DNA of 64,000 nucleotides, from the NCBI GenBank assembly GCA_020137815.1, contig CM035360.1, forward strand, positions 7,874,001 through 7,938,000, given 5' to 3'. The DNA comes from Hormiphora californensis. Lineage: Eukaryota; Animalia; Ctenophora. The first letter of the stretch is position 1. The number at the start of each line of letters is the position of its first letter. The notes below the pieces were generated by a model that was given only the letters and a program-made list of their open reading frames with translations, was not told the origin of the DNA and did no database searches. The translations under genes were made by a program, and so were the position numbers. This document shows, piece after piece, positions 3,081-55,291 of this stretch.

Positions 3081-6000
3081 CTCTTTCTCTCTCTCTCTCG
3101 TTCTATCTTTCTATCTTTCTATCTCTCTCTCTCTCTTCTCTCTATATATCTATACTAGCGCACCCATTGGGTGCGCCTCAAGTAAGGCCTTTAACCCACC
3201 CGGCTTCGCCGGTTGGTTCTTTTCGCCCTTTCAACGTCAATAACACGGTTGTCATGGCAACTGAATTGGTAACTATGGGGACTGGCATGTTAAAAGGCAT
3301 TCGAAAATATTAACAAACTTCCACTGAAAGACTAAAGTTCCAAAACTGTGAGTAACAGCTTTACAGCTTTGGGCACATAGAGTGTTTTATGAAGGAGCAG
3401 TCTGTCGCTTAGATACCGCTGAACGAACGACTATATCTATTTAAGTATATATCTACCTATCTATCTATCTATCTATCTTTCTATCTCTCTTCCCCTCTTT
3501 CTCTCTATCTATCTCTCTCCCTCTCTCTCTTTTTCGTTTTGGGAATTTGCGAATCGTAGTAGCTAAGCAGGAAAATTTTCGCTATAATCGAGAAAATTAC
3601 CGAATAGATTTCAACATAGCGATCTGAAGGGTCTGACCGAAAAATATGGTTGGAAAATTTTCCTTTTTGTCCGTGAGTCGAACTAGAATTGTGGCTAGTT
3701 GAGAAATGGCTCCGAAAAAAAAATTCCAAAAAATAGCACGGCCATTGGGCATATAATACCACATTTCGTTGACTACTCACCCTTACGACCACACATTTCA
3801 GGAACTATTACTTGGGGAGAGACGAGGAAGTACCCCGTTTAAACGAACCTTCCGGCGAGGGGTAAGTTAAAATATTGATAGCGCGGCTGGGGGAGGGGAA
3901 TGCGCTTGTCAGCGCAGTGATAGCACATGTGGGACTATACTGTCATGTATGAATATAACAGCGACAACCCAAAGATGCATTTGAAAGAAATTATTAATGG
4001 AATAAATAAAACGAGTTGTAGGAAGAATGTATATATTAAGCCAAAAACTAATTGAAATTAGTTGGCGGGAAAGGTGGTCCACTTACACCTGTTGCTGCTG
4101 CCGGGTATCACCACGAACTCTCATTCTCTCCCTCGGTATCTCAATCTGTTATTTTTCGAGGGTAATTTATTCCTGTTCGTTCTATCCCTCTCTCCTCCCT
4201 GTCTCTCTGTCTCTGTCCCTCTCTCTCTCTCTCTCTGTGCATCACGATATATTTTGTAAAGTTTCACTGACCATGCACAGTGGTCAGGAAAGGGAGTTTT
4301 TGCTCGAAAAACGTTCAATTTGCTGAATTTTTCGTCAAATTTTTGACTTCCAACGCGATTAAGGGCTCAAAATGATGAGCTACGAAAATTCGCTATCTGT
4401 ATCTGAAACGGTGACAGTGGTTAGAGAGAAATAGACAATGGTTGCAATTGTACTGATTGGGTCTGCAACATGATGATGATACACAGTACACCCATGAAAT
4501 TAGTCAGTGTGTATTGCTTCCTTTCGCTTCTATTTCACAGTCCATATTTGTACCAACTACCACTGCACACTGTGGACACATTGAGGGCACATTGTGGATA
4601 GGGTGAGGCCATATTGCGCACAACGTTTCCACAATGTGTCCTCCACGTGTCCTCAATGTGTCCACAATGTGTCCTCCACGTGTCCTCAATGTGTCCTCAA
4701 TGGGTACACAATGTGTCCTCAATGGGTCCACAATGTGTCCGTAATGTGTCCTCAAACGTTCCGTAAGCAGTATGTCATTCTACCTAAAATCGGTCGACCC
4801 CCTCTCTGGGACCCGTTCCAGATAGGGATTTACTCATAAAGTCCCGTTCCAGGGAGGGTTGATATGTGTCTCATCTCAATAGTTCCGGATAGATAGTAAA
4901 ATGATCCAGACAGGACTTATTTCTCTTTCTCTCTCACTCTCCCTGTCAATCCTTCGCGATCTATTCTCTATCTCTATCTCTATCTCTCCCTCTCCCACAC
5001 TCTTTCTAACTCTCTCTTCCTCATGCTTTCTCTCTTCCCTCTCTCATTCCCTCTTTATCTCTCTTTTGAAAGTATGGTTCTCAGTTAATAATAAGAGTAT
5101 ATTAGCCTGATCCAATAAAGTAATGACAATTTTGTTGAATTGGTATTTCAATTTCCACCTCATAATCGACACACAGTGTGTAACTTCATTCTTACTTACG
5201 TGTTGATACGAAATTATGTCCCATATTCATGTAAAATGATTTATACAAGATAATATTTAATTCCATGTAAAACAAAAACGTTTTGTTCTGACTCCGTATA
5301 GAGGCTACAGTATTTTCAGGCGATGACAGTTCAGTATGTCAATCCAGTCTCTCATGCCATTTACACTCACTGCAGTTCGCTTTTGCAACATTGTAATCCT
5401 TCTCTGTATACAATTACTATATGAATGTTGGTAGCTTGACACGTTATACAGTTTGCTGTCCCACTTCCCAGCTCGAGCTGGGAACCGCCAACTAGAGTTT
5501 AATCGCCCCGAGAGGGCAATTAAATTGGTTTAAATCATGCACAGAAATACAGATTACAGTACGATGAATACCTAGTGCAGATCTTATTCGTGTTCTTATA
5601 TTATTTTAAGTTGATACTTTTGCTCATCAAACTAGTATGTATAATCGCCAGATAACATATCCTAATTCATCTTTGTCACGTGCATCTGATACCCGACAGC
5701 TTGATTTCCTGTCATCACTACCCAACAGAAAACTGTCTAAATCGGATGTAAGTAAATACATATAGGCAATGTTAGCTTAATATGGTTGTTTCAGTAGGCC
5801 ACAAGAGAGCTCTATCGGCGTGGAACCGAGAGCAGAGTACAACAAATAGAAACACGTTGGTTTACAAACCAACGTGTTTCTATTTGTTGCAATGTTAGCT
5901 TATGTTGATTCGTCACACTGTGACATGACTCACAGTAGAGGAACTCCTTTTTATTGTAAAGTAACAACGACACCAACAACAACAACAACAACCCCATCCT

Positions 6001-9000
6001 ACAGAGGAGCAACCTTGCCGTCGGTTTGGTGGGCTTCGTCCTCTTCGGGGGATCAACGAATGCTCCTCATCAAGGGAACTGCCCCGGGCAGTCCCAAAAA
6101 CCTCAACAAACCCCAGAGAAGACATACAAGGACAACAGACGGTATATTTTTTTCCCGACCCGCAGAAGGCTGGCTAGGTCTCCTCCTGCTGCGGGGCGGG
6201 GATATCGAGACGAACCCAGGACCTAAATGTCACTCATGCTCCGGAACAATCAGAGTCAACTCCACCCCCTACCATGCTCCACAACCGGCTGCCCAGAGAT
6301 TTGCCACAAATCTATAACCTGTAGTGGAATCAGTAGATACAATCTCAAACCATCATGGAAATGTACCAACCACGGAGGTGTATCACCGTTCAACCAGTCT
6401 ACTGACACCGATGACTCCAGCCAAGAGGTGGAACAGAGAACCTGCTCGACGTGCAACAAAACGATCAACGTTGGCATAGTCCCCATTAAATGCAGTGTAC
6501 AAAGTTGCCACAGCTGGTCACACAAACAGGAAAAATGTAGTGGTATAGAGAGGTACCAGCTAGACAAATCTAAATGGCTCTGAGCTTCACACAGTTCAAA
6601 CTCAAGAAGCTTCCCTCCACCATTCCCAAGAGGTGCAAGGGTACCGAACCCGAGCACTAGCACCCCATGGAGAGCCTCCAACCCTACAAACTCCCTCCCA
6701 CCTCCTCGAGTTCTATTCCCCCTGTCACCTCCCCTCCCTTCGAGCTCATCGGATAGCTCGCAGTGCCATGGTCTACTCAGCCCACATAGCATATTCAGAT
6801 TCACCCCAACCTCAGCATCCCCCAGGACAACCAGACATCCTTCCCCTTCAGCTCCACCCCAGCCCCATCTTTTTCGGGGGATGGATGGGGTCACCTTTGC
6901 GCTTGCCAGCGCAGTGATATATACTATTATTATATTATATTATATATTTATCTGTATCAGGTTATATTAAAATATATATAATAAGTAGAATGAGGTAGAA
7001 ATTAACAGCGTGTTTCACACTATCCTTTACCATGAAAGATAGCTAAGGAAAAGATAGACAGTTATAAAAATAAGAGAGAAATAATGAAAAGTGAAACTCT
7101 TCCAAAGGAATTAATTGACCTTGCAAGAGGAAGAATTAAAAACGACGTAGAAAGAGAGAGAGAGAGAGAGAGAAGAAGAAGAAGAGAGAGAGGAGAAGAG
7201 AGATCGATGATAGAGAGAGAGAGGAGAGATAGAGAGATGAGAGAGAGATAGAGAGAGAGAGCGAAGAGAGAGAGAGAGATAGAGATCAGGAAGATATAGA
7301 TCTTAATTTAAGTCAAATAGTCTTTTACTCTTACTATACGAGTTGTTTATAACATACACGCTGTGAAATGTTGAGTAGTCAATACCTCTCAGTCCCTACT
7401 GTTCATATTCCCTCTTTCAAGGCCGCCATTCCTTCCATACAGGTACCATGACAACGGCCAATCGACAACATTAGCCGTTTCCGTTCACTTCAGGCCATTA
7501 GGTGCAATTGAGGGGTGTGTCCACTGTCCAGCCCGGATGGGCTGCCAGATTGTTTTTTACAAAAATAACAAATTCATTTTTAGATGGTTTATCATCTTTG
7601 AAGTCCATTTTTATTCAACTGTTAAGGCCTCGTGCTCAGGCGTCAACTCGTGCTACGCTACACGTTAATATGTGATAGACATATAAAAAAATTCCGCACT
7701 CGACTTTGGGGGTGAACAGTTGAAGAAAAAAAAGGACTTTATGTTACATACTGGGTGTTCATTTTGGATCTTTACAAGCGTTTTCACTTCACTCACCCGA
7801 AAACAAGTTAACAAGATTAGGAAAGGTCCCCCATGACAAACTTCATACTTGGACTATTCTATACCCTCATTCAAGGTTCCGGGGGGTTTTGGAGCTTTAG
7901 GACCCCGGGAAGTGTGTTTTTGGCATCAAAACTATCAGAAGGAATTTTTTTTGCTGGTGCTGAGACTTTGCTAAAATGTTTTTTGGGTATTTTCTATGTC
8001 AATCCTAAAGTTTCATAGAGATTAGATGTGTTTTTAAGACTCAAAATTTCCTAAAAAGTGGTTGGAAAGACTCAATTTTAGCCGTTTTTGAGCTGTTTTC
8101 GAGCCTTTCCAGCCACTTTTATCGAAATTTTGAGTCTGAAAAACACATCTAATCTCTATGAAACTTTAGGATTGACATAGAAAATACCCAAAAAACATTT
8201 TAGCAAAGTCTAAGTATGAAGTTTCATGACCTAATCTTGTCAACTTTTTTCTGGGTGAAGGCCAACGCTTGTAAAGATCCAAAATGAACACCATGTATGT
8301 TACATATGCGAATAAATCTTGATTTACACTTTATTAAATAAATAATATTTATAAAGGGATACACCAGGTTACAATTGAATTTTTAAAATTGTTTAGTTTC
8401 TCACTCAATTCTACAGAGGTGGAGTAGCAATTAACGACTGTGAAAACGCGAGATCTCTACGCCCTTTCATATCAGATATAATATGGCCCCTCAATTATCA
8501 CAGAGAGAATCATGTGTGTTCTCCCTCCGTTTCAGGGATAGCGGGTGAGGGCATACGTTAACATATGATAATACTGTGTGATAATTGAGAGACCATATAT
8601 CTCTGATATGAAAGGGCGTAGAGATCTCGCGTTTTCACAGTTGTTAATTGCTACCCCACCTCTGTAGAATTGAGTGAGAAACTAAACAATTGTAAAACTA
8701 AACAATTGTAAAACTAAACAATTGTAAAAAGTCAATTGTAACCTGGTGTATCCCTATAGGGATAATTATAATTATGTGTGGACTAGTTTTTCCTAAATTT
8801 TTCGTCAATTTCAGACGTTTTTAGCATGATTCAAGTTAATACTGCTATAGCACACAGACTAATATTGTAGTGTTTAACATAGAATTGTGTCAACAAAACC
8901 TAATATGTATATGTTCATACAGTCGGACCCCGATTTAGCAGTACCCCTATTTAACCCTTTGAGGCCCATATTTCACCCCGCTATACCGGGTACCCGATTT

Positions 9001-18967: not shown

Positions 18968-19599
18968 TACTACTTTATAATTTATGATTTACATTTCAGT
19001 TTTCAGTTTTGTAAGGACGCAGTGGGGACCAGGGTGGGGTAGCAGGTTCAAAGCACACATAAGACCTTACCGTCTTCGTGCTAGCGACCCTGTTACGCCA
19101 CCCTGAATCCTCACTTAGTTTGGTCCGTGTGGCTGGTTTGCTTGATATTAAGTATATGTTCATTTCGGCGCAATGCCACTGCCAGCGGCAGTTTGAATGA
19201 AATGAATGAATGAATGAATGAGTTAGGTTACACGGTACGGTTACACGGTACGGTTACACAGTACGGTTGCACGTGTGTTTTGACATTACCAGGATCGGAG
19301 GCACCGTGAAAGTTCGATTTTGAGCGTGAAAAGGTTACCAGGCCTGTTTTTAGACCAAATCAGAGATATTAAAAGGACCCGCCCAGGTGAATTTTTGAAA
19401 ATCAAGGAGTTATGCCGCCCTCTAAAGTGTGCATGTCTTCCTGTCAGTGTCTGTAATTCAGAATGTTCATCTTTGGTAAATAATGAATAAGTCATTTCAC
19501 TTGCGCTCTTCAGCTGTTGTATGAGATGATATTCAGAGTTGATTTGAGATCACATAGAAACGGAAACGATTAGTCGCCACGTATCTATTCATTTTGCAG

Positions 19600-22500
19600 G
19601 TCGGAGGAAGCTCGACACAATAATACGGATGTATTTCAAATACACTTGTTTTTATACCTTTTTACGTTCCTCAATAAACTATGTACCTCTCTTCAGATAC
19701 TGGAAAAGTTGATGTATGACTATGATCCCAGATCTAAGACTGACGATGGAATACTGCGCTTGTGTAAAGAAATAAAGGAACATTGGGATGGGAAAATGAT
19801 TCCACCAAATCAGTATGGGCTAAACGAGGCATGGAATAAAATTACTTCTGCTGAGGTAAAAAAGCTCAGTGTGCCACTTTTGCCCAACTATCGCCCGGGC
19901 CCTGCTTCGCTGATACTATTATCTACTAATATTGTTATCTGTCCGGTATTGTTATCTTATCTGGTAGGCGGACTCTTGGCTCCATTGCAACTTATTCTCG
20001 CTCCGCGAAGAATAGGCTCCCGCCCTGTGGACAGCAAGAACTCACGTGCACACGATGTAAAGCACGTTTTTCAGCAAATCCCGTGCGACAGACTGTTTTG
20101 GGAGACCTTTTTAGCTGACCTAGCACAACTCAAACGTCAATTACCGCCTCATTTCGCATCGTGATGAATCGGCGGGTATTTTCCCATGCTCACAAGGCCA
20201 TGACGATTCACCCAGTACCCGCAGATTGTCCCAGGACCGAGTAGGAGCTTGCAGCCAGGTCTTTAAAGAATTGCCCATGTTTAGAGTCAATTTTGACCCA
20301 CTATTCCTCAAATGCTGATACTCGCGGGTATTTTCCGTAAAACTAGAGACAATTATCTGCCAGGGGCAACAAACGAGATGCAAATCGGTTCAGTAGTTCC
20401 TTGCAGCCAGGTCTTTGAAAAAGTTTGCTCTAAAATCAATAACGGGGCAGAGACCTGTATGTGAGATCGATCTCAGTCGCGTGCGATGTCGATCTCACTA
20501 AGGTATGAATGTGACCAAGGCGGACTCTAGTGCTACACTCTAAGTCTACAGTGGACTGTATATCTAAATTTAGATTTAGATAAAGAGTCCAAATAAGTCT
20601 AAACTCTAGGAGGACTCTATGTCTAAAAAGTCTACACAGAGCGGACTCTTTATCTAAAAAGTCTACAAAGGGCGGACTCTATATCTAAATAAATCTGCAT
20701 TAGACATAGAGTACGCCATTTTCAGCGAACTCGAGATTTCGGCCGTTAGGCTGGAAACGAGAGTTTGCTGTACCTCTATACTAATTTAGAAGTGTTAGGG
20801 CTATTATTTGGGTTCGAGGTTAGGGTTAGGGCTAGGGTTAGGGTTAGTGTTGGTTTAGGATTTTAGACAAGTATAACTGTAGATAAAGAGTCCGCTTTTA
20901 GATATAGAGTCCGCATTGAATTTAGATAAAGAGTCCGTTAGCACTAGAGTCCGCCTACCATCTTATCTGTCCTATAAATATATTCCAGTTGTTTTTAATT
21001 TCAGAGCCTGGATGTCAAGTTTGCTGTTCGATCAAATGTTACTTTTAATGGTCTCCTTGACGACGATTCTCCTATTCATGGAAAAGCAGTTACTTTCCGA
21101 GTGCGTGATTGCTTACATATTAAGGCGGTGAGTACTTTAAATATATATTATGTAGGGTAAACCGGGGCAATTCGAACCACCGGGGCAATTCGAACCATGT
21201 TCTGCACGTCTCTCACCTAGTTAAGCTATCATTATGACGTCATCCTATCTCCAGAATAGTGCGAGACACTAGCGTGGTAAAAATGTGCGCCACACAAATT
21301 TCGTTTTTCAAAAAACACGCAAGAAAAAGTTTTTAAGTATCGACTTTTCACGTTTTGGCTCATAACTCCTTTTCCTGATAAGATAAAGACTTCAAACCTT
21401 CGCCATTCGATGGGACTTGAAATTCCCTTTCCAACGGTATGCGAAAGATTTCTCATCAGGAACCGGAGATATAATCAATTATGATAATACCGAAGGAAAC
21501 TTACGCGGTTATTATCATAATTGATCATATCTCCGGTTCCTGATGAGCTACAGAAATCGTTTGTTGTGCTGTTGCACCTCCCCCGCGCAGTATGAACAAT
21601 ACAAATCGTTTGCATACCGTTGGAAAGGGAATTTCAAGCCCCATCGAATGGCGAAGGTTTGAAATCTTTATCTTATCAGGAACAGGAGTTATGAGCCAAA
21701 AAGTGAAAAGTCGGACTTGAAAAACTCTTTCTTGCGTGTTTTTTGAAAAACGAAATTTGTGTGGCACGCATTTTTTTGCGTGTACCACGATAGTGTCTCC
21801 CGCTAGAAGAAAACTGCTCGTTTGAGCCTGCCTGTTACCACTAAAAGGGCTCTAGATCCGGTTTATGATGGCCAATTTCAGATTTGAAAAAACTAGCTGA
21901 AAGCTAACAATATAAGCTTTCAGATGGTATAAAAATTATTTAAATATCCGCATGTTTTCATTTCAAATTCTGGTAAATTAAAAACCACCGGGGCAATTCG
22001 AACCGGGGCAATTTGGTTAACACACCGGGGCAATTTGGTTAGTGAACCTTGTCAGATTACGCGACAAACGTTCATAGTTTATATACCCCGATAGCAATTA
22101 TACACTAATAAGAGCGACAACACAAGGTGAAACACACTAGTAGTGCTATTGATTTTAATCGATGTTAATGATGTGTTACAATACAAACTTTTTCGATGTT
22201 GATAAACAAAATTAACGTTACCCCCCCCCCCTTATAGGGGGTATGTATAAACCCGGATAGCCCGGATAATAAGTAATTTTATGAAAGCTATTCCAGCGTA
22301 TACGAGCTGGAATACTCCGGCGCGGTAATCATGCCCAGATAACTTGTATAGCCCGAATATATCAAATAAATAATAATCGAGCCCAGATATCCCGGGTTGT
22401 CCTCTATGGCTATCCTAAAAATACCTAATATCCGGGATATCCGAGCTGTCCGGGTTTATACATACCCCCTAATATAATGGAGATGGGGGACAAGTCCACA

Positions 22501-25500: not shown

Positions 25501-28500
25501 TTCAACTCCTTCTTTTCATAGAGACTAGCGCACCCACTGGTTTTGGTTTTTGATAACCCACCCGGCTTCGCCGGGTGGTTCTTTCACTTTCAACGTCAAT
25601 AAAACCGTTGCCATGGCAACTGAATTGGTAACTATGGGGACTGGCCTGTTAAAAGTCATTCGAAAATATCAACAAACTTCCACTGGAAGTTCCAAAAGTG
25701 TGAGCAACAGCTTTACAGCAATTAAAGAGAAACAACGATTTTGCAGTACTAATATTCAATTAAGAACAGGAGCTTTCGACTGATCTATGTCAGACGTCTT
25801 CAGCTTTACAGCTTTGTGCCTATAAAGTGTTTTATGAAGGAGCAGTCGCTTAGATACCGCTGAACGAACGGCCACTTCGACTTCGTTCATCTCCAACTTA
25901 TAATAGAGATGATACTAATTAGAGAGTGAGCTATGACAATGACGCCGACGACAGACAGATACAACAGTACCACTTGCGCCAGGCGCCTTTGGGGCGCAGT
26001 GCGAGGTACAGTCGAACCAAACTAAACTAATTGGAGAGGTGCGACTCGAGTTTGGGCATTTGTAACCAGTTGAGATGTTTATTACTTGCTTTTGGCTTTC
26101 GTGTATAATTTCAATTGTTATCTAAAATAGTGAGACTAATTAGATAAACAATGATAATTGCATTATGTTCCACTAGTCCTAAGGCCAAGGATGACTTGCA
26201 ATTGATTGCTCACTGCATTGTTCACCGCATGTCATATCATTATGGTTGAAGGATGAATGGCAGGGATTCGAGATTAATAAATGGTATACCGCTTTATGTC
26301 GGCTGGGTGGTGTAGTGGTAACACACTCGCTTCTCATGCAGAAGGTCCCGAGTTTGAATCTCGGTTCGGGATCTAATGCAAGCCGTCTAGTTGACCAAGC
26401 TATAAATTGGTGCAGCTTCGGCTGGAAAGTAACACACCCCTGCACGTAGGGCTACCCCCCCCCCCCTACTGTAAGTTTAGTACCTCGGTACGGAGTAGCT
26501 TAGGGCTATGGATCAGAGATAAGCACCGCCGGCTTACCCAGTGATTTGGGGAGACCCACCACTTGACTTTGACTTTTTTATACCGCTTTATTCATGTCTT
26601 TGCTCTCACTTTTCGTCTCTCGATATTGCTTGTAACTGTAATTACTTTCTTTAGGCGAAAAACGCAATCCCAAGATAAAACCCAGTCGACTCAGGATGTC
26701 TCCGAAAAACTAGACGGCAGTATGGAGAGTATAGCTTACATTGCACAAACTAGAATATCGGAAAAAGATATGAAGGTTATAATTGACTTGCAGTTGAGAA
26801 ACTGTATTGAAATACTTTATCCTCTGTCTCACACTCTTGAGTGAAGCTAAGGTTTCGACAAAATCAACAACTTTCTAATATTTACCTTTAGTCCCAAGGT
26901 CCATATGAAGCCGTTCCGTTGATACGTCCGATAATATTATGTGGGCCCTCCCTTCGAGACTTTGAAGTTACAGATCTTATGCACAAAGCACTCTTTCACG
27001 CCCTCAAACAGAACTATAAGGTGAGTAATGAGTATGGATTATGATTATGTTATACCAAATTTTTACACGGACTGTAACAAAAATTACGTTAGACGTCGGA
27101 TTTTTTATGCTCGTTTTTCCTGCGCCTGATTTGATTTGAAAAAGATATTATATAAACGTACAAATTGCACATTAAATAAATACCCGACCATCGTTTTTGG
27201 GATCTCAGAGTGCGTTCTACACATCCTAAAAACGATGGTAAAAACGATACAGACAGAAAAATTTTGATTTAGGCCCTAGTTCCTGAAATATTGAGGTTAA
27301 AATTTTAGAAAGTTTGATTTTGAAATCACTACATCAGATTTTTAGTTCTCTATCTCAGGATCATAACTGTCAAGTTTCAAGGCCCAGGTCCTAGCCGTCT
27401 CTTCAGGAAGTGGAGCATAAAGTGAAAAAAAATGTTCTGAAATATCTATCGATTAGTATCGTTTTGATGTTTACATTGATTTTTGGGCCAAAAGTTAACC
27501 TCAATTTTTTCCTTAACGGTGTGTGCCCCGTATATAAGTGACTTTTTAGACCCCCCTCTGGCCTTAACAAAGGAATTAAACGCAATCATATCATGACAAA
27601 AGTAATATTTAAATCACAGGATAAGTTTAAAGTGGTCCACATAGAGGAGAAGTGGATAAAAGCATTTCACAATGCCTTAGCTAACAACAACACTAAAGCT
27701 CAAGTGGGTACCGCAGGTGAGTGACGCACATGTCTCTATGTCAGCAAGCTGTTGTTATATTCGGTAGTATGGTAGTTAAGGTCGTGCGCACTTTTTGGCG
27801 CCATTTGGCGCCAAATTGGCGCCAACTTGGCGCCACGTGGCGCCACGTGGCGATATTTTAGCGCCAAATGGCGCCAAAATTTGGCGACTGCGCACAACCG
27901 CCAATTTGGCGCCAAAATGGCGCCAAGTTGGCGGTTTTTTGGCGCCAAATGGCGCCACGTAGCGCCAAGTGGCGCCACGTGGCGATGGTAAATCGCCAAG
28001 TGTTGGCGGTATTTGGCGGTACCGCCACGTGGCGATGCGAATTTGTCTGAATAAACTGTGTCCATCGCCAAGTGGCGCCAAATTGGCGCCAAATTGGCGA
28101 TAGTACCTAAAATTCCAAATATTCATAACGTCCATCAGAGGAATTCCTATCGCCAAGTGGCGCCAAATGGCGCCAAGTGGCGCCAATTTGGCGCTAAATT
28201 GGCGATTAGATACGAATCGCCAACTTAGCGCCAAATTGGCGCTACTTGGCGATTGCCGCCAACTTAGCGCCAAATTGGCGCCAAAATGGCGATTGGCGCC
28301 AAATTAACGCCAATTTGGCGCCAAATGGCGCTACTTGGCGCCAATTTAGCGCCAAATTGGCGATTGGATACAAATCGCCAACTAAGCGCCAAATTGGCGC
28401 CAAAATGGCGATTGGCGCCAAATTAGCGCCAATTTGGCGCCAAATGGCGCTACTTGGCGCCAATTTAGCGCCAAATTAGCGATTGGATAAAAATCGCCAA

Positions 28501-31500
28501 CTTAGCGCCAAATTGGCGCCAATTTGGCGATTGTCGCCAACTTAGCGCCAATTTGGCGCCAAATGGCGCTGCTTGGCGCCAATTTAGCGCCAAATTGGCG
28601 ATTGGATACAAAACGCCAATTTAGCGCTAAGTTGGCGATTTGTATCCAATCGCCAATTTGGCGCTAAATTGGCGCCAAGCAGCGCCATTTGGCGCCAAAT
28701 TGGCGCTAAGTTGGCGACAATCGCCAAATTGGCGCCAATTTGGCGCTAAGTTGGCGATTTTCATCCAATCGCCAATTTGGCGCTAAATTGGCGCCAAGCA
28801 GCGCCACTTGGCGCCAAATTGGCGTTAATTTGGCGCCAATCGCCATTTTGGCGCCAATTTGGCGCTAAGTTGGCGATTTGTATCCAATCGCCAATTTGGC
28901 GCTAAATTGGCGCCAAGTAGCGCCATTTGGCGCCAAATTGGCGCTAATTTGGCGGCAATCGCCATTTTGGCGCTAAGTTGGCGGCAATCGCCAAGCAGCG
29001 CCAATTTGGCGCCAAGATTGCGCCAAAGAGGTGGTTAATTTCCGCTTCTGAACGTTCCCACTCGCCAAGTGGCGCCAAGAGTGAAAAGTACATGGCGCCA
29101 ATTTGGCGCCAATTTGGCGCCACTTGGCGATGGACACAGTTTATTCAGACAAATTCGCATCGCCACGTGGCGGTACCGCCAAATACCGCCAACACTTGGC
29201 GATTTACCATCGCCACGTGGCGCCACTTGGCGCTACGTGGCGCCATTTGGCGCCAAAAAATCGCCAACTTGGCGCCATTTTGGCGCCAAATTGGCGGTTG
29301 TGCGCAGTCGCCAAATTTTGGCGCCATTTGGCGCTAAAATATCGCCACGTGGCGCCACGTGGCGCCAAGTTGGCGCCAATTTGGCGCCAAATGGCGCCAA
29401 AAAGTGCGCACGACCTTAACTACCATACTACCTTATATTCTGTTTTTCCTTGTCATACACTGACTGTACATCGCGCAACCTCGATGCACAGTCATACCCC
29501 AAACCCTGCTTTATCACGCGCAAAGATGAAACGAGGCGTGTTAAACACAGTTTGAACTCTTCTGAGGGCTCGCGCGACTTTCCCACGGCCCGTGGGAAAA
29601 GCGAGAGATTCGTTCAGACTATAGAGAGAGAAGAGTTGGCACGTGTTAGCATTTGCCGTGTGCGGCGCATTTCAGATTCAAGTAGACCTTTTGGGGTGAG
29701 ACCCTCCTCGCTACGCGGCCTCACGTAGCCGCACCGGGCCTTCGGCCCGGTATGGAGAGGAGGGTCTCATGTATGAGACAAGTTTTTCCTCACCCTTTGA
29801 ATGAGTTCCTACGATTATTGTAAAACATTTGGTTAAAAAAATTAGCCCTACCCTGGCCCAATTACATGGGCCGAAGTATGCCCATATATGGGCATATTCA
29901 TATCATAAAATGTTTTTGGGGCGTTATTTTGAAAAAAAAAACACAAACATATGAATCGCCTCATGAGAACCAGTGTAACCATCATTTTCAGTCTGACTCT
30001 GAAGCTTCAGAACTCCATTTTATTATGAAAACAAGAATAACTGCATTAATATTATGTTTCATAATGCTATGTTTCCCCGCCAACCTTTCATTTCTTACAT
30101 GAAGGCGGGACAGACGTTTCGGATCATTTATACATCACTCAAACAGTATAGAACAAATCCTTGCGTTTTAGTAGCACTAAATTGCGTGCGACATTGCGGA
30201 ATTGTGCGCCACACATTTCCTGAAAACGTTTCAATGAAGTGGTTTATGAAGGAGCAGGTTGTTGTTGTGTTGCGTCGCTCTAGTTGCTACACGTTGCCCC
30301 TCGCAACCTGAAACGGGACAAGAGAGCTGACTTGCTACAGGTAGTCACTATGTCCGTTACAGATTTCTAAACCCCTATGCCTTTTTGCAAAAGATATCCG
30401 GGTGAAGGCCTTCGGCCTTCACCCGGGCGGGGAAAAAGTTTTTCCCTGCCCGTGTGAATGCCCGAAGGGCATTCACCCGGGATGATGTTTTTAGCACGCA
30501 CGTGCTAAAAAGATCATTCAGGGTTTAGAAATCAGCAGATTGTGTAGTCAACTAAATGTCCGTCTGTCCGTCCGTCCACCGTTACACATAGTAACAAAGT
30601 CTGCTCTTTCATAAAATTAAAACTTATTGATGCAACAAAGGAAATGATTAACATGCATTGTGGCGCACAATTATTCACTCGTATCACTTCCTACCTTCAC
30701 AAAAAATCACTTTGGGTACCCTACAGCCGTACCATGACATGGTAACAAGTCTTCCAATCATGAAACTACTATCACACAATACAGTCGGACCCCGATTTAG
30801 GGACACCCTCGGGGGAAAGGCTCTTGTCCAATAAATCGGGGTGTCCACTAAATCGGGGTCAAATAAGGTTAATTTCCTATATCGGGGGAAAAAAATCCTG
30901 TCCCTAAATCGGGGTGCCACTAAATCGGGGGCCCCTAAATCGGGGTCCGACTGTAATTGCAAGTGACTGGAGTTAAGATGAGCTAGGGTAAAGTTAAACC
31001 ACTTGGTAACCAACCAGGGTCTCCTAAGCAACTACCTTGGTTATCATAGCATCCGGTTTTGAAGCTTAGTCATCAATTTTACACTCATTTGTGACAGGGA
31101 AACACCGCATTATGAATACATAATGCAATAATTCTTGTTTTTCTACATTTTTTTCCTGCACATTTTCTTACTTTTGTAGTGGGGACAAATTTTTGAGTTT
31201 TTATTTATCGGAAAGCAAATTCCGGTTATAACCGACTGATTTTGGCCTGCTGAACACGATCCTGCAGTATATTAAAAAGCTATCAAAATTGAAGAACATG
31301 ACTAAAATGAACATTTTTGGTCCAAAATAAACATTTTCAGGTAAAAAATGAACTTTGGCTAACCGAGGGGCATCCACCCGTATGATCGTTTTAGCACGTG
31401 TGCTAAAAAGATCATAAAGGGTTTAGAAATCTCGGATTTGAAATAGTAACTCGAGCGTGGTCAAAATCGCGTGTGTCACGGTAGCAGCCTGACAACCGCG

Positions 31501-34500: not shown

Positions 34501-37500
34501 TTCATGCATATAGAAAGATTGACAAAAAGTGGGAATAGTCAAAATTAATTATCCAATTAATTATAAGTAATTAAAATTTTGCCCCTGCACAATTTTGTTT
34601 GCCCCTGCACAATTTTTGCAACTTTGATATTCAAACTGTGGCCACACCGTTTGAAATTTCGAAATGAAACTTTGTATGTATGTTCTAGTAGTATAAATAC
34701 GAGTCATAACGGAGCCGGATTTTTGATTTTCTAATTAATTAATTAATAATAATCAATTAAAACTTTTGCCCCTGCACAGTTTTGGCAAATTTGATATTCA
34801 AACTTTGAGCCTTTGTGAAAGTTTCATACAGATGCTGGCGATAGACTCGATAGAGTTCGATTAATTTACTATGACAACGGTGTTGGTTACCATAGTAACC
34901 AGGGAATTCGTTGTAAAATAGTCCTTTCTTGCTATAAACAATATAGTTAACGTGTAGCGCACGCCACAAAAGTTTTAAATTTAAGTTTTTGGGTGAAAAA
35001 TAAATGGACTTTAACAATCGAAACAATGTGTGCCATTAGATCCTGAACCGAGAAACGAATATTTGTCAAATCGAATTTTGTTTAATGCGTGCCCCCGGTT
35101 CCCATTATTAAATATCGGACTATATGTTAGCAACTTCGGGTCGGACGAGGGGAAGCTTGCCTTTTGCGAACATATATATATATATACATCATGGCGCGCT
35201 TGCACTGCGTGCAGAAGGTTATGTACTATGATATAAATCAGGTTTCAGCTCCTAGCTGAAGCACTTAGCTGTAAGCAACCCGCACACTTAACCCTCTTAT
35301 CACCGTTTTCAGAGGCAATGGATCATGTGGTTCAAAAAGTATTCGAAGCTTCAAAATCCTTCAACTTACTGTTTATAGATCTGAAAATTAATTTCCCGGT
35401 TGCGATCAAGAAAACGCCAATTGCCCCTCTCCTTGTCCACATAAAAATTGGCAACACCAAGGTATGTTATTTTAGTGTTTATATATGCATATAATATTTG
35501 GTAGTATGAAAGATTAGGTCGTGCACGCCAAATGGCATCATCATTTTCGCCAAATGGCACCACGTGGCGAACAAATGGCGCCACTTGGCGCCAAAATGTG
35601 GCGAGTGCACACTATCGCCATTTCTGGCGCCAAATGGTGATTCGCCAAATGTTGGCGACTCTTGGCGGTATCGCCACGTGGTGATGGGATGAAGTCTGAA
35701 AAAAACTATGCACAAAATTTTCATCGCCAATTGGCGACGAACGGCGTCATATGGCGCCAAGAATCGCCAAATGGCGCCAAATGTCGCCATTTGGCGCAAA
35801 ATTTTTGTCAAATGTTTGTCGCCATTTGGCGCGGAACGTCGCCATATGGCGCCAAATGGCGACGTTTAGCGCCATATGGCGACATCTGGCGCCAAACATT
35901 TTGAGCCATATGTCGCCATCTGGCGCTATATGGCGACATTTGGTGCCAAATGGCGACGTTTGGCGTCAAATGGCGACGTTTGGCGCCATATGGCGACAAT
36001 CGTTTGACAAACATTTGGCGCCATATGGCGACAAACAGCGCCATTTGGCGAATTAATCGCCAGTTGGCGCCACTTGGCGCATAACGGGGAGTGTTCTACT
36101 TTAAAAATAATAAAAATATTGTTGATACATCGACAATTAGCGCCAAATGGCGATGTTTGGCGATGAGTATCACCAAATGGCGCCATTCGGCGCCACTTTG
36201 TGACGATTGTCGCCGGATGGCGCCAGATGTCGCCAAACGGCGCCATTTGGCGACTTGATCTCCTGATCGCTTAATGGCGCCATTTGGCGATAAAAATTTT
36301 GCGTATGTTTTTTTCAGACTTCATCCCATTGCCACGTGGCGATACCGCCATTCCGCCAAGAGTCGCCAATATTTGGCGAATGGCAATCGCCATTGGCGCC
36401 ACGTGGCCATTTGGCGATAGTGCGCACTCGCCACATTTTGGCGCCAAATGGCGTCATTTGTTTGCCACGTGGCGCCATTTGGCGAAAATGATGGCGCCAT
36501 ATGGCACCATTTGGCGCACACGACCTAATCTTTCATACTACCTAATATTTACGTTCGTAAAAGCGTCCGACCCAACGCGTACCCAGTATAATCTAGAGGG
36601 TACGCAAGGATAGTCCTAAATTTGGGTTGCCAAAGTGTTACCAAAGTTTTATCATAGTTTGACCTAAGTGTGACCAACTTAACTTACGAATTACTTGACT
36701 TAAGCCTCATCCTACTGGGTGGTGGTCGAATCGATGTATTTCTATTAGGATATATGCCAAAAACTATCAGAAATTAGTTGGCTGGAAAGGTGAGCACTTT
36801 TGTTGTCAAAACTGACACCTTTACCCGGCTTCTAATCACTAATGCAATGTTACAAAAACCCAGCACTATCTCATCCAGGGATGGAAATGGTTATGGGATG
36901 TGTGTCGTTGCTGGTTACTTCCACCTCTCACATGACAAGTCCGATTCAGTCCACATCTGCGTGGTCCATCCTGGTAACGTCACTCTGTTAAGAGAGAGAG
37001 GGAGTGAGTGAGCGAGTTAGAGAGAGTTCTGAGAGAGTGACGGCTAAATGACTACGGACGTCCAGACAACTTTGGATATTTTCAATTCTGACTCACGTCA
37101 CCTGACTTACGTCACCTGAGGGCCCTGCCCGTTAAACCGGCTGCTGTATCGCCTGCAAAACTGCTCTCTTGCCCATTGCTGTTTTCATGACAGTGCAGGG
37201 CTGAGATAAACGGAGACAACAACTCAGACAACAACTCGCCAGTGACTGAGTGACCTAGTCACACACGGCACCCCCGCTACACAGCACCCCCGCCAGTGAC
37301 TACGTCACACACGGCAACTGAGGGCTCCGCCTGTCGACCCGGCTGCTGTCGCCTGCAAAACAGCTCTCTTTCCCAATGCTGTCTTTATGACAGGGCAGAG
37401 ATAAACCCAGTGGCCAGTAATAACCAAGTAGGGGCTGGTCGCCCCTAGGGAACACCTGCCACAACAGAACCATCCCAAGCTTACGCAAATGCGTGATGTC

Positions 37501-46500: not shown

Positions 46501-49500
46501 GAACCGCACTAGCTGGGGTTTTAACATACATGTGACCTTTACTTAGAATTATCATCGATTGTATGACACTCGCCCCAGCAAAATTCCAGGCTGTGGGCGG
46601 ATTAGTTTCAACTGGCAAATCTCGTAGCCCAAGTCAATTGAGAATCACTACGCCTACTTTTCATAAATGGAGTAACGACCATACATACCAAACTTACCAA
46701 ACTAGTAAATATAAAACAAATTATTCACATAACCAGCGACCATACTTCATACACTTCAACCCTTAATAACCTACTAAGCGACAGCCTATAATGGAGTGAC
46801 GACCATGACAGGCAACTAAAACACTTACTTACTTACATCTCGGGGATCCGTCTTTTGGGTAGGGACCTGACCTTACATCTCATGAACGGCCGGACGTTTC
46901 ATCCTTCACCTTGTGATGCTCCATGAACCCACATGGAGCACTGGTCCTAGACCAGAGGTTGGCAGCGCAAAATCTAGAAGGTGCCCGAGTCAAGGGAGCC
47001 AGTCCAACTAGTCCTAGCCATTGACCACTTCGATCTTACCCTCCACTAAGAAGCCCCTTAGCGAAGGCTGACATTGAAATCCGAGACTGGCATTAGTGTG
47101 AAAACATATGCCGATGCGGCTCTTAGCAATCAAAACAATCTCGTAAGGGAGATATAGAGGAGTCCCATCTCCTGCACGCCCAGCGCTAGCAGCCAACTGG
47201 GTGATCAGGAATGGGACGGGGGGGGGGGGACATGTTAATTGTTAATAAATCACCTCTTTTTTCCGATTTTATTAATTAACGTTAATTAACAAAATTAACA
47301 AATGTTAAAATATTGGTGTTATCGGTTGATGATACGACTTTAACTGATTTAAATTTATAATTTAATGACTTATCTAACGTTTGTATACCCATGCAAGGCC
47401 TCCTCCGATAACCAAAGTCCGACATACAAGTTTTTTGGCTCCAAATCGAATAAAATTCAAAGAGTACGAATATTTCAATTTAGCGTGTAAAGTGTCACTT
47501 GAATGTAATTTTTTCATTGATAATCCATTATTCAGACGAAAGAAAGTAATGTACAACGTTTCTGTTCGAAAAATATGAAAAAATTCCCAAAATTGCTTTT
47601 TTGGTCAAAAATTGAAAATTTGCTTCGCTACAAATCCTTGTGTTTTTTTAGAAAAAAAATTTTTGGGATATTTTTCGATTGAAGGTAAATTTCCCGTAAA
47701 TTTATAAGTTGGAAAATGTGGATTAGTGTCATTTGACCTCAATTGCGGTTCAGGTTGGCTAGTTTTTGTTCGAATTTACAAAATGGAACAAATCGTTGTT
47801 GGGAACAGTAGTAGACGGCTTGGGGGTATGCAAATCATGCAGAAGGAACATCTTTGTTCGCAGAACAACATGCAGCAAGTGTAATACCAAAAAACACGTG
47901 CTAAAAAGACTTAAGATGGTATAAATGGCATTTGTTAATGTTTGTTAACTTTTATTAATTTTGTTAATAAATCACATGTTTTTTCGATGTTAATATGTAT
48001 TAACAAAGTTAACAAAATTAACATGTCCCCCCCCCCCAATGGGACAATCTCTGGGGGAAAGAAACCTAGTTTCTGGAACCTGAGCTCCGGAAGAGGACTA
48101 CTTGGAAGTGATGCAATATCTTCTGGGATTGGGGAGAGAATTAGGAGTCGGAAGCGGAGGAGCATTCAACAACAACAGCAACCCACCAATACCCAAGAAA
48201 CAAGACCCTATAATGTGTATACCCGTCACTCAAGTACACTGTACAAGGCAGTCAAGTATGTACAAGGCATCCCATGTATCCAATCCCGTCCGTAGGGCGG
48301 GTGTTTCCGATAGTGTTAAAAATTCAAAGAATGTGTTTGTGAAACAGAAGGATTGTCTCTATCCTATTTGACAATTAGTATTAATCTAAAAGGAATTCTC
48401 CCAATCTCTATTATAAGTTGGAGATGAACGTCGAAGTGGTGGTCGTTTGTTAGGCGGTATCTAAGCGACAGTGCTCCTTCATAAAACACTTGTACCCAAA
48501 GCTGTTGGGCTGTTATTCACACTTTTGGAACTTCCAGTGGAAGCTTCTTAATATTTCGAATGAATTTCAACAATTCTACAATTTAGTCCGCATAGTTACC
48601 GCTCCAGTTGCCATGGCAACCGTGTTATTGACGTTGAAAGGGGCGAAAAGAAGCACCCGGCAAAGCCGGGTGGGTTATTGAAAAAGCCCTTACTTGAGGC
48701 GCACCCGATGGGTGCGCTAGTCTTAATTAAAAGATACAAATGAGTGGCGTGATAGTGATGTAGTATCCACACGTGCAAATAGAAGAGGGTTGCCAAGGAG
48801 GTGCCATAGCCCCTACGCAGCAGGTGATTTAAGGCTGCACGTGGGAGTTGGTGCAGTGGGTGAGAGGGGGTGCTCCTGGGTGAGGGAGAGCGTGGGGATT
48901 CGGGTCAACGGGTGCTCTACTTCAACGGGCTTACTAGTCATTATTAAAAAAGGCAGATGCTTGGTGATGGTAGTGATGGCTCAACATTTGCACGTGCAGT
49001 TCAGATGGACTGAGAGGGGCTCAATCGGTGATGGTAGGGATGTGCACGTGTGTATTGATTTCTTGATCAATATAGCTCTTTGGAAAGATCTCCTCAAGTC
49101 GCATTTTTTGAAGTTGTCGCCCCAAAATGACCGGGCATGTGAAATTTATCAATTTTGACGCGCACACCACACGTTAACATGTGATGTGATGCGCAAAAAC
49201 ATTCCGCGCACGAGAAGGGGGGTGACAACTTCAAAAAATCCGACTTTATTTCTAAAGATCCCAGGAAATTTAAAATTGGTTGAGAAATGGCCGAGTTATG
49301 GGGTAAAATGTCTCAAAATGGGCGAAAATTGATTTTTCAATCAGCCGTTGTTACTATTGAGAACGTTGGGCTCTAGAGTAACAAAAATATCTCAGTGATG
49401 GATCGAGATGGGTCGATTTTGAGTGGTAAAAAAGGAAAATGCCCAGAGAACTATTCTCTACTACCTACAACCAATGCAACTTGTCCAATTCTGATTCGGT

Positions 49501-51154: not shown

Positions 51155-52894
51155 ACAGTATCTGATTTTTGATTCCTAGTTTGCGTGTGATGTATATATT
51201 ATATACATCACACGCAAACTAGGAATCAAAAATCAGATACTGTATCAGATAATAAATTGTTCGATCTTTTCTCCCTCTTCTCGTTTGTTAATGTTAGGTT
51301 TAAGAGATTTGATTTGGAATTTGGATCGCCTCCGTGACTTTTCGTCTGACTGGATGGTCCAAGCCAGTTGCCAATATGTCAAACTCTAAATCAGGGGGTT
51401 CTTCATTGTGTTGTGATTGGTAGTGTGCTGCAAGTGCCTCGTTAGGGTAGATATTGGGTGATTTCGCTGCCAATCTGTGCTCCTTGAAACGGTCACGGCA
51501 CGGTCTAGCCGTTTCACCCACATATATTTCATTACATAATTTACACACTATCTTGTATACCACTCCCTTGACAGTACAATCCAAAGTGGGATGGGTCATG
51601 AGGGGGCATACAAGACAGTTAGTGACAGTGTGTTCTGTCGTACGGTCTCGATTTGCAAAACAGGTTTCTCAACTTGGTACCTGGTGTAAACACAACTCGG
51701 ATGGGAAGAATGTTTGACCGTATGAATGAAGTTACAAACTCAGAAAATGATTCACTAATATAGGGAAGGTTAAGTATCGTGAAGTGCTCTCGAGATGTGG
51801 AAATCGACATAAGGCGGCGCTCGGAAGTTTGTCTAGGATCTGGGTACCCGTTATTCATCAACAGCTTATCAACCATACCCATCGAGTGCTCCTCGTGGGT
51901 AGCATTCGATGAGCAGGTAGCAGCTGTTCGGTAGGAGTTCTTGATAGTATTAATCTTCACACCTTCAGGTTGATGACTCTTTGAATGTAGGGTCATGGGT
52001 TTCTTCTGAGGTTTACTATAATATACTAATTATTATATACTAATATAATATCGGTGTTCTACAATACCCTCATCAGATACCCGCAACTCTGCATCCAAGA
52101 ACGGCACCCAATCTCCCTTCTCTGGGTAATCTACTTCCCACTGTAGGAGCTGATCGGGGTCCTCCTTAGCAATACCTGCCACCAATTCTCTCGCTTCCAC
52201 CTCAGATTTTGCAAACGAAGCAGGCAGTATCGTCTACATATCTTCCGTAGAATGTGAGACGGAGGTTAGTGTATATACTAGCTCTCTCAAACATATACAC
52301 ACGGATGATTGCTGCTAGGGGCGAGGGTTTCGATCCCATGAACAGACCGACAAGTTGTTTATACAGCTTGTTGTCGTACACGAAATACGAATTCTCAAGT
52401 ACCACATTCAACATCAGGTGTATATCAGTAGCAGAGATCCCCCAAGTATCTAACTCCTCCCAGTGTTCGAGAGAGAATTCAACTAATGACTTCACGCTCG
52501 CCTGTATGTCGATGTTGGTGTAAAGTGAAACTACATCTGCCGAGAAAAACGACATCTCCTGAAGTTGGGAAGGTGGTATATCATGGAGTGCAGTTAGGTG
52601 GTTATGGATGTTAGAGAGGTGTGAGGGCACGTGTTTGAGTAAAGGTGACAAGATGGTTGTGACGGTGTGCGGACTCTAGTGCTACACTCTAAGTCTAAAG
52701 AGGACTCTATATCTAAATTTAGATTTAGATAAAGAGTCCAAATAATTCTAAACTCTAGGAGGACTCTTTATCTAAAAAGTCTGCACAGGGCGGACTCTTT
52801 ATCTAAAAAGTCTAAACAAAGTGGACTCTATATCTACATAAATCTAAATTAGAAGTGTTAGGGCCGTTATTTGGGTTCGAGGTTAGGGTTGGGG

Positions 52895-53913: not shown

Positions 53914-55291
53914 TTAGGGTTAGTGTTAGGGTTAGGTTTTGGGTTGGGTTAGGATTGTAGACATAGAGTCCGGGTTGGGGGATTTGGCGCCAAAATGTAC
54001 TAGAGGACTCTATATCTAAAAATTCTACACAGGGCGGACTCTTTATCTAAAAAGTCTACACAGGGAGGACTCTTTATCTAAACTTTTTTCAAAATCTAAC
54101 TGTAGATAAAGAGTCCGTTTTTAGATATAGAGTCCGCCTTGGATTTAGATAAAGAGTCCGTTAGCACTAGAGTCCGCCCACCGGTTGGTAGTACCCATGC
54201 CAACTTCTCAGTAGGTGACCCGCAACAACTCACTATTATAGGACGCACCTTAAAATCACTCAAATCCGGTTCACTCAAATCAATATTCGACATTCATCTT
54301 GTGAGTTTTAATCAATATATACATGGTTGGCAGAGTAGAATCACGGGAAATAAATAAATCTGAGAATTTTCTATCCAAACTCACTTTCTCACAAATAGTC
54401 GACAAAAGGGTATTAGCTTCACTTTCTAAATTATTACGTGAAGAAGCAATAGAATTACTGTAGGAATATTCAGTCGGTTTAGCAATAGTACGGGTACCTC
54501 GGCTTGGAGGCAAAAACTTATACACACCCTTTTCACAAATAGAGTCTCTGTAATACTTTTCTGAATCTGCTTGTCTATCACCACGAATTCACCCCCCTTT
54601 TCCGAGACAGAGATGTGTAGATCATTCTTCCTCTTCAATAGAGATCGGAGTCCGTCGCGTTGGGAGGGTGTGATGTTGGACTTGGATTTGGTGGTTTCCA
54701 AGCGAGTCAGGATCACTTGCTGGAGCTGGCGGAGGTCATGCTTCCCATCCGAGTTGTGTTTACACCAGGTACCAAGTTGAGAAACCTGTTTTGCAAATCG
54801 AGACCGTACGACAGAACACACTGTCACATTACTAACTGTCTTGTATGCCCCCTCATGAACCATCCCACTTTGGATTGTACTGTCAAGGGAGTGGTATACA
54901 AGATAGTGTGTAAATTATGTAATGAAATATATGTGGGTGAGACGGCTAGACCGTGCCGTGAGCGTTTCAAGGAGCATATCTACCCTAACGAGGCACTTGC
55001 AGCACACTACCAATCACAACACAATGGAGAACCCCCTGATTTAGAGTTTGACATATTGGCAACTGGCTTGGACCATCCAGTCAGACGAAAAGTCACGGAG
55101 GCGATCCAAATTCCAAATCAAATCTCTTAAACCTAACATTAACAAACGAGAAGAGGGAGAAAAGATCGAACAATTTATTATCTGATACTGTATCTGATTT
55201 TTGATTCCTAGTTTGCGTGTGATGTATATATTGTATAGTTCCTATTTCGTGTATTTTAGATATTAGAGATTAATTAATGTGACCTTATTTT

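Follow-up and report, generated by a model that had tools for sequence, protein, structure and literature searches.

How translation starts on the uncapped, ribozyme-cut RNAs of non-LTR retrotransposons, and why elements with a single ORF have a 2A peptide close to the N-terminus, are questions (PMC3894237) on which the locus described below bears. The stretch of DNA analysed, 64,000 nucleotides from Hormiphora californensis (hereafter the window), carries an HDV-like ribozyme fold, a 2A peptide and Cys/His fingers in succession, features that are already published for such elements. Together they make up the dead, 3′-truncated 5′ part of a non-LTR retrotransposon of Ingi-like type, the active relatives of which are likely to funnel ribosomes from several reading frames into one ORF. 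The features are as follows.

5963..5992, + strand: (CAA)n microsatellite, read from the sequence
5993..6068, + strand: HDV-like ribozyme fold of L1Tc type (C1-G first pair, one-pair P1.1), from a descriptor search and shuffles
5993..6153, + strand: leader with no stop in any of three frames (0 stops vs 3.7 expected)
6060..6062, + strand: ATG spanning J4/2 and P2′, in frame with the 2A in the window copy, not conserved
6147..6153, + strand: slippery heptamer U_UUU_UUU, its −1 frame being the 2A frame
6150..6224, + strand: 2A/StopGo peptide ending GDIETNPG/P, by motif, with the predicted skip between 6221 and 6222
6159..6225, + strand: predicted H-type pseudoknot, 5 nt past the heptamer (stem 1 6159-6169/6185-6195, stem 2 6175-6181/6219-6225)
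6228..6373, + strand: Cys/His finger 1 of PHD-like type, disrupted near 6265, where one nucleotide shifts the frame
6443..6592, + strand: Cys/His finger 2 of PHD-like type, ended early by a stop at 6581-6583
6593..6868, + strand: Pro-rich linker, the last part of the copy; family contigs continue with other sequence past 6868
6870..6920, strand not given: unrelated high-copy repeat adjoining the break, with matches at 3901, 13004 and 62356 and very high depth

Identity and decay of the window copy

The original prediction described an animal Ingi/RTE-type 5′ module. Its Ingi part is upheld by the ribozyme, leader, 2A and PHD-like fingers in the window, to which homologues add APE, RT and often RNase H, and two Ingi-clade features, a 5′ HDV-like ribozyme fold and an N-terminal 2A motif, are present. 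There were 68 homologues of the fingers, 42 of them with NPGP and two full-length with APE, RT and RNase H, and the search for full-length relatives found these three domains together in L004, L009, L013, P0020 and P0047; RNase H was not found in full-length L010 and L019, a Vingi-like state. By APE, 15 of 21 loci are nearer the RNase H-bearing L004 and L013, five are nearer CR1/L2-like elements and one has no APE. An RT tree that holds no named Ingi/L1Tc reference, and from which L017 was left out, parts the groups weakly (65/48, long branches), and five MAGs yielded only known or CR1-like sites. The names of the homologues did not point to a clade. The RTE label was dropped because the relatives carry RNase H, fingers and a 2A, an architecture that does not point to RTE. 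Viral origin was dropped as well; viral contigs searched with an RT query yielded no Ingi 5′ end.

Decay of the window copy is evident as a frameshift, a premature stop and a 3′ break at 6868, a position at which loose contigs end in three runs, and tblastn detected no APE, RT or RNase H remnants of the element elsewhere in the window. An ORF from the junction ATG had been expected to run through the 2A into two fingers; the two Cys/His fingers do exist, but outside that ORF, which ends at 6315-6317 after 85 residues, the frameshift near 6265 having moved finger 2 and the remainder of finger 1 into another frame. Copies of the family in the same organism were viewed through contig pile-ups, in which CAA-rich DNA precedes other copies too, and the (CAA)n tract likely represents the target site of insertion. 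The tails of relatives are (CAA)n, (CAG)n or (CAC)n, and L010 is flanked by (CAG)n at both ends.

Pfam gave nothing significant for the window peptides and no PHD match, a word-indexed search of proteins gave no matches to the finger ORF, and in alignments the last conserved finger ligand is His, which departs from the C4HC3 pattern. The family finger profile matched the Pygopus PHD at an E value of 1.6e-5, and the best fold matches of a predicted finger model were PHD fingers, albeit weak ones (Foldseek E 0.13; VIA Z 5.0, rmsd 2.6 over 50 residues).

The element had been placed in an intron of a CACNB gene. Two SH3 exons of CACNB do lie on the + strand at ~21.0 and ~22.7 kb, but no CACNB exon was found upstream of the element, so the intron placement stays putative. 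The putative upstream exons at 781-1113, 2717-2830 and 5610-5762 were rejected because no homology was detected for them. Since the element lies on the CACNB strand and its ribozyme is essentially identical to that of the family, cleavage of host pre-mRNA by the predicted ribozyme is possible, and any effect of the dead window copy would be confined to cleavage of host transcripts that cross it. Three RNA or possibly-RNA runs contained 5-6% of the words, and one same-species run guessed to be RNA next to none, which does not constitute evidence on expression.

The predicted HDV-like ribozyme and the stop-free leader

The HDV-type nested fold with an ATG at its junction, as originally predicted, is present in the sequence as a nested double pseudoknot of P1, P1.1, P2, P3 and P4. 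P1 comprises 6 bp (5993-5998/6028-6033) with C-G as first pair, P1.1 is the single pair G6017-C6034, P2 has 8 bp (6004-6011/6061-6068), and P3 (6012-6014/6023-6025) encloses L3 (6015-6022), in which U6015 and G6020 are the equivalents of U20 and G25 in HDV numbering. P4 is capped by UUCG and has one C-C mismatch, and J4/2 is CGAA, including C6057, the predicted catalytic C; the predicted cut lies 5′ of 5993.

The fold is the sole compact descriptor match on the two strands of the window, as against one match in 12 block-shuffled 64-kb strands, and its score was reached by none of 40 local shuffles, on which grounds a chance fold was ruled out. Stricter descriptors missed the window or all relatives, and the final one tolerated G-U pairs in P3 as well as a lengthened J4/2 and a short P4. 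The covariance models of the Rfam HDV-like families, proposed earlier as a check, gave no match, neither at gathering score nor at E values up to 10, and earlier screening criteria have been described as too restrictive for L1Tc-type folds (PMC4035085). Plain minimum free energy, a model without pseudoknots, was unremarkable (z −0.67 to −1.55 for three core fragments, +0.43 with flanks).

Across eight ribozymes, 128 of 136 helix cells are paired, with 53 pair types, a count that is partly by construction because the descriptor itself selected these eight; P1.1 is G-C, C-G or U-A among them. Relative to the organism's main family, the window ribozyme has no listed differences, and a sister family, seen in two runs, retains the ribozyme core unchanged with a P4 shorter by 15 nt. 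No ribozyme was found by descriptor in six of the 16 loci, and the starts of L006 and L007 were placed by eye.

From the first base of the ribozyme to the heptamer, the ten mapped leaders contain no stop in any of three frames where 38.6 are expected, although they are not all independent (L012, L016, L019 and L024 are mutually 58-81% alike). This holds inside the ribozyme (0 vs 21.9 expected) and in the rest of the leader (0 vs 15.4), and TAA, TAG and TGA are the sole trinucleotides absent. Stops occur in the upstream flank (30 vs 34.5 expected) and return past the slip (41 vs 48.5), and antisense stops in the same leaders are at a normal level. In five of six additional loci, every frame stays open over at least 140 nt; L004, where the ribozyme call is doubtful, has a stop 5 nt before the heptamer region.

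It had also been proposed that ribozyme folding sequesters the start codon. The junction ATG does open an ORF to the 2A, with the proline of NPG/P as codon 55, and is in frame in L024 too. However, only two of eight compact ribozymes have an ATG at this junction, and in the sister family it is out of the 2A frame owing to four extra bases between the two; sequestration as a conserved mechanism was therefore rejected. Synonymous differences make up 0/7 in the leader, read in the ATG frame, vs 11/18 codons in the finger frame (Fisher p 0.008). The frame of the leader ATG varies among copies. A 2A-frame ATG lies within seven of the ten mapped leaders, so that many could use a simple start in that frame, whereas the intact ORFs of L009, L013 and L019 (1280-1646 codons) are preceded by a leader that holds no in-frame ATG before the slip.

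Slippery heptamers and predicted pseudoknots at the 2A peptide

In the window and in all 15 loci with an Ingi-like APE (16/16), a heptamer that has the 2A frame as its −1 frame is followed at a spacer of 5-6 nt by a predicted H-type pseudoknot, the canonical layout of a −1 frameshift signal. The heptamers are G_GGU_UUU (5), G_UUU_UUU (6), G_UGU_UUU (3) and U_UUU_UUU (2). P-site re-pairing is imperfect for G_UGU_UUU and G_UUU_UUU (9/16), and the U7 run of the window would also permit −2 or +1 re-pairing. G_GGU_UUU is among the most shifty −1 heptamers, for which spacers are 5-9 nt (PMC5009743). The zero frame, that of an upstream ORF, is open without a consistent AUG: an ATG starts it in three of ten mapped leaders and not in the window.

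Like the ribozyme, the predicted pseudoknot is conserved and covaries, two alignments having been kept out of the pair counts because their stems are out of register between subgroups. No synonymous shuffle of 60 equalled it in 13 of 16 loci; in L004 six did, and in the window, where stem 1 is also the minimum-free-energy hairpin and a mismatch (6166 x 6188) stands at a position that pairs in both family alleles, three did. Between 16 and 27 codons separate the heptamer from the GD motif that follows it, and in L011, where the distance is 27, the pseudoknot tracks the heptamer and not the 2A. The signal was absent from all five CR1/L2-like loci; among the six loci outside the Ingi-like group, five have no in-frame U run and L022 has a U run with no pseudoknot. 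None of 52 viral 2A controls has the full signal, and none reaches −24 kcal/mol vs 15/16 Ingi-like sequences, although the controls look less GC-rich. At the protein level, the tripeptide trace [GVF]F[FLSCWY] is found in 30 of the 47 homologues whose N-terminus reaches far enough (26 at −19/−20; background 57/2743 windows) and is missing in 17, a further 18 having been left out as too short.

The 2A itself has the GD(V/I)ExNPGP motif with a hydrophobic upstream tract; the motif is kept in both families, and family differences inside it are synonymous. The motif alone does not suffice for skipping.

Proposed routes to the long ORF and known systems

We hold it somewhat more likely than not that active relatives merge frames in the following way. 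The predicted ribozyme cut would leave an uncapped element RNA, and ribosomes entering in more than one frame would cross the leader, which holds no stop in any of them. They might load cap-independently on the cut RNA or arrive in a host or microsatellite frame on RNA left uncut; since the ribozyme itself is stop-free, loading at or upstream of its 5′ part is likely. Ribosomes in the +1 frame would reach the long ORF by a −1 shift at the heptamer and pseudoknot, to which the canonical geometry points, and those in the +2 frame, in the least certain step, by slipping −2 or +1 along the U run. Skipping at the 2A would then remove whichever leader was made. At somewhat less than even chances, such a relay of ribozyme, multi-directional frameshift and 2A frees translation of Ingi-like elements from dependence on start codon and frame, such that any ribosome entering from the 5′ side, even from a host ORF through (CAA)n or (CAG)n, would yield the same proline-started protein.

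It is unlikely, though worth weighing first, that a single −1 frameshift or a throttle operates instead, with one upstream frame feeding the ORF, or with some in-frame AUG starters sent off to stops close by, which would keep RT output low, the remaining open frame being a relic of frequent leader indels. The canonical −1 geometry and the in-frame ATG of seven leaders fit this, as does the closing of both non-2A frames 2-44 codons past the slip, and single-ORF elements have been argued to need translational down-regulation (PMC3894237). It accounts poorly for the absence of stops in three frames even inside the ribozyme, upstream of most ATGs, and slips out of the 2A frame would re-pair poorly at G_GGU_UUU-type sites. 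We regard as improbable that the pseudoknot is an IRES-like initiation or protein-binding element, as for R2, with the leader kept stop-free by, for example, avoidance of nonsense-mediated decay or uORF termination: such roles have been proposed for HDV-like ribozymes and R2 5′ structures (PMC6765202; PMC3185411), but the constant frame and 5-6 nt distance of the U-run heptamer in all 16 cases, a pseudoknot inside the 2A coding sequence and the return of stops right past the slip speak against it. Least probable of all is a start at the ribozyme-stem ATG gated by folding, with the U run and structure incidental or a mere pause, since the in-frame ATG6060, its counterpart in L024 and the reported position of 2As 40-80 aa from the ORF2 start (PMC3708506) are outweighed by the junction ATG's rarity, its loss of frame in the sister family, the lack of synonymous bias in its frame, and the stop-free other frames and fixed spacer that it leaves unexplained.

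The proposed funnel offers a testable answer to the opening questions, namely a disposable leader of variable frame, a frame-merging shift and a uniform product made by the 2A. If true, it would mean that the nuclear DNA of eukaryotes holds a family of natural frameshift pseudoknots, along with a compact cassette by which out-of-frame translation may be rescued.

Searches of the literature turned up no account of the leader, slippery site and pseudoknot arrangement. For animal Ingi/Vingi elements a slippery site, pseudoknot or three-frame-open leader is unreported, and the word 'frameshift' does not occur in PMC3708506, PMC3894237 or PMC5786205. Viral −1 signals likewise combine an X_XXY_YYZ-type heptamer, a 5-9 nt spacer and a 3′ pseudoknot (PMC5009743). 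In cardioviruses a frameshift and StopGo are also near each other, but the shift is downstream of StopGo and leads out of the ORF, whereas here it lies upstream of GD and would lead into it from a leader whose product is not conserved. The RNA freed by R2/RTE HDV-like ribozymes is similarly uncapped and needs cap-independent translation, for which IRES-like initiators have been proposed (PMC6765202), and a 2A or frame-merging signal is not described for them in the excerpts checked. Among the clades listed with 5′ ribozymes is Ingi (PMC5786205), and Ingi-1_AC of Aplysia has an active 2A (PMC3708506). Trypanosome L1Tc/ingi shares with the present elements a 5′-terminal HDV-like fold (L1TcRz/Pr77 in the trypanosome case) in which +1 is a C and P1.1 a single pair (PMC4035085; PMC3185411), an N-terminal 2A and, as in the relatives, a single ORF with APE, RT and RNase H. 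A frameshift signal is not described for L1Tc in the excerpts checked, the comparison being with its literature. Its 2A directly precedes APE, whereas window-type elements have fingers between the two, a place in which a PHD is known from Crack, CR1 and STR elements (PMC3708506).

The ribozyme module and its decayed copy

An HDV-type nested fold was read from the sequence at 5993-6068 of the window, and the components that had been described for it (P2, P3, P4 and J4/2) were all located there, together with P1 and a P1.1.

Components of the predicted HDV-type fold (window positions, strand, feature)
5993-98/6028-33, +, P1, first pair C-G
within 5993-6068, +, P2, 8 bp
within 5993-6068, +, P3, ACC/GGT
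6017/6034, +, P1.1, one pair only (G6017-C6034)
within 5993-6068, +, P4, capped by UUCG
within 5993-6068, +, J4/2, CGAA

A compact-descriptor scan returned this region as its sole match in the window and one match in 12 shuffled strands; Rfam gave no match to the fold, and the nested-only MFE of the region was unremarkable. With a relaxed descriptor the fold was recovered in 10/16 Ingi-like sequences, i.e., the window and 15 fetched loci (eight compact, two doubtful), and in none of eight controls. Pairing among relatives held in 128 of 136 helix cells of the eight compact ribozymes, where P1.1 is G-C, C-G or U-A; since the descriptor itself picked these helices, the real control is the shuffle test, in which the score was reached by 0/40 local shuffles per sequence, the exception being locus L024 (2/40). 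No ribozyme difference from the window copy was listed for this organism's main family, and the sister family, found in two runs, keeps the core with a P4 15 nt shorter and an altered P1 5' strand (one U-G pair becomes C-G, one pair is lost).

J4/2 of the compact ribozymes is invariably CGAA or CAAA and never CUAA, which is common among other HDV-like ribozymes and would contain a stop codon. By eye, HDV-like folds missed by the descriptor were seen in loci L007 (166-270) and L006 (68-218), with a long insertion past the G25 position (HDV numbering) of L3. Minimal ribozymes with P4 almost absent occur at L005 92-147, L010 1881-1938 and in run X9, the P1 5' strand of L010 being the same as that of the window.

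The ribozyme, 2A and finger module of the original prediction is real and already known from the literature, but this copy is dead, a fragment. Both the 2A and the two fingers said to follow it are present, but the ORF from ATG6060 terminates at 6315-17 and the fingers run on in a different frame until a stop at 6581-83; family contigs are intact at both sites and extend beyond 6868, while the 64-kb window holds no downstream element parts. The fingers are PHD-like (weak matches), with His as final ligand. Searching with this region gave 68 proteins, 42 with NPGP and two with complete APE, RT and RNase H. Searches with 2A alignments fetched at least 15 metagenome loci and six genome loci, and by APE similarity 15 of the 21 were of the RNase H-bearing type, five were CR1/L2-like and one was without APE. 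At four long loci the terminal tail is (CAA)n, (CAG)n or (CAC)n, and at L010 there is (CAG)n on both sides, which would explain the (CAA)n run upstream of the window copy. We call the element Ingi-like on its architecture, compared without named clade references. Loci L019-L024 are eukaryotic retrotransposon-type contigs within bacterial genome records, probably contamination.

A heptamer, a predicted pseudoknot and an open leader

All 16 Ingi-like sequences carry, 16-27 codons ahead of GD, a U-run heptamer with the 2A in its -1 frame, followed after a 5-6 nt spacer by a predicted H-type pseudoknot. As a sequence pattern, this putative frameshift-type signal, which the original prediction missed, has good support. 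The pseudoknot score was reached by 0/60 synonymous shuffles in 13/16 sequences, and by 3/60 in the window, 6/60 in L004 and 1/60 in L006. Stem sequences vary among families with pairing retained, and in L011, where the heptamer is shifted away from the 2A, the pseudoknot stays with the heptamer; position 6166 of the window is unpaired with its partner, and both family alleles do pair. Among the six loci that are not Ingi-like, the U run is missing from five and the pseudoknot from L022. This last, CR1-like locus has a U7 run 17 codons ahead of its 2A (3776-3856), with closed side frames. An in-frame U run was found at 52 of 97 viral 2A sites, and 0/52 reached -24 kcal/mol or below vs 15/16 Ingi-like sequences. 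A heptamer-matching tripeptide occurs in 30 of 47 proteins with long N-termini (26 at -19/-20; background 2%), a set that leaves out 18 with too-short N-termini and includes a few of the same elements as the loci. G_GGU_UUU is ranked among the most shifty -1 sites, with a usual spacer of 5-9 nt, in PMC5009743.

Also well supported as a pattern, and likewise missed, is a leader in which every frame is open. Between ribozyme +1 and the heptamer, the 10 mapped leaders (four of them 58-81% alike, two starts placed by eye) contain no TAA, TAG or TGA in any frame against 38.6 expected from dinucleotide shuffles (P about 7e-12 even with one coding frame allowed). The absence extends over the ribozyme part (0 vs 21.9) and the remainder (0 vs 15.4), and the three stops are the only trinucleotides missing. 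Stop frequency is normal on the antisense strand, and there is no depletion in the upstream flank (30 vs 34.5) or in the 150 nt past the slip (41 vs 48.5). Five of six further loci are open for at least 140 nt, L004 being the exception; the six CR1/L2-like or unclassed controls are open for only 7-50 nt, and 0/52 viral 2A sites for at least 100 nt.

Possible routes into the ORF and the host gene

We propose that the ribozyme liberates the element RNA and that ribosomes would traverse the leader in two or more frames, those in +1 moving -1 at the heptamer into the ORF and those in +2 perhaps slipping along the U run, by -2 or +1. Ribosomes that do not shift would terminate 2-44 codons on, and the 2A, coded entirely past the merge point, would free an ORF protein starting with proline. 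The main evidence against this multi-frame entry is the in-frame ATG in 7/10 leaders, the imperfect heptamer in 9/16 sequences and L004, with its weaker pseudoknot score and less open leader.

A plain single frameshift or throttle would draw on the same heptamer and pseudoknot, set beside leaders free of stops in every frame, and we hold it to be unlikely. That the pseudoknot is instead an IRES or binding element appears improbable. Least probable, and very doubtful, is a start codon gated by the ribozyme: the ORF from ATG6060 does reach NPG|P at codon 55, as predicted, but sequestering of a conserved start is not supported, with the ATG at the J4/2-P2' junction in only 2/8 compact ribozymes, a distance to the 2A that is four bases longer in the sister family, 0/7 leader differences synonymous in its frame vs 11/18 codons in the finger frame (p 0.008; displayed differences between window and family contigs only), and the 17 ATGs of the 10 leaders spread over the 2A frame (nine, in seven loci), +1 (five) and +2 (three).

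The element had also been placed in sense orientation in an intron of the putative CACNB N-terminal region. SH3 exons of CACNB do lie downstream, at about 21.0 and 22.7 kb, and share the element's strand. Upstream of the element none of the candidate exons could be assigned to this gene, so that cutting of the CACNB pre-mRNA by the ribozyme is only a possibility. Exon-like open stretches occur at 781-1113, 19574-20161 and 47939-48292 (+), with no Pfam match (first 99 codons only for the second). Other features of the window are a stretch at 5766-5902 that has a 14-bp direct repeat at its borders, contains a perfect 50-bp palindrome (5840-5889), shows very high depth in three runs and is likely a MITE-like insertion; a Penelope-like fragment at 51303-52675 (-) with weak RVT_1 and GIY-YIG matches, its peptide repeated, by eye, in another at 54429-55127; a tRNA-like sequence at 26303-26369 (+; 31.6 bits, just over the Rfam cut-off), possibly a SINE head; and long arrays of GC-rich units at about 27700-29500 and 35500-36600, in both orientations, with repeated peptides in all frames.

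Comparison with known elements

Published work already describes 2A in Ingi as well as in other clades, a PHD lying between it and APE (PMC3708506), and likewise ribozymes in Ingi (PMC5786205) and HDV-like ribozymes of related elements (PMC4035085, PMC3185411, PMC6765202). No frameshift, pseudoknot before 2A or all-frames-open leader in Ingi-like elements was found among the papers listed by our literature searches or in the passages covered of PMC3894237, PMC5009743, PMC13405545, 10.64898/2026.09.24.754024, PMC12846837 and PMC13708176. The putative frameshift signal and open leader are apparently unreported. Two features of the window ribozyme, the C at its +1 position and the single pair of its P1.1, are those of L1Tc-type ribozymes (PMC4035085, PMC3185411).
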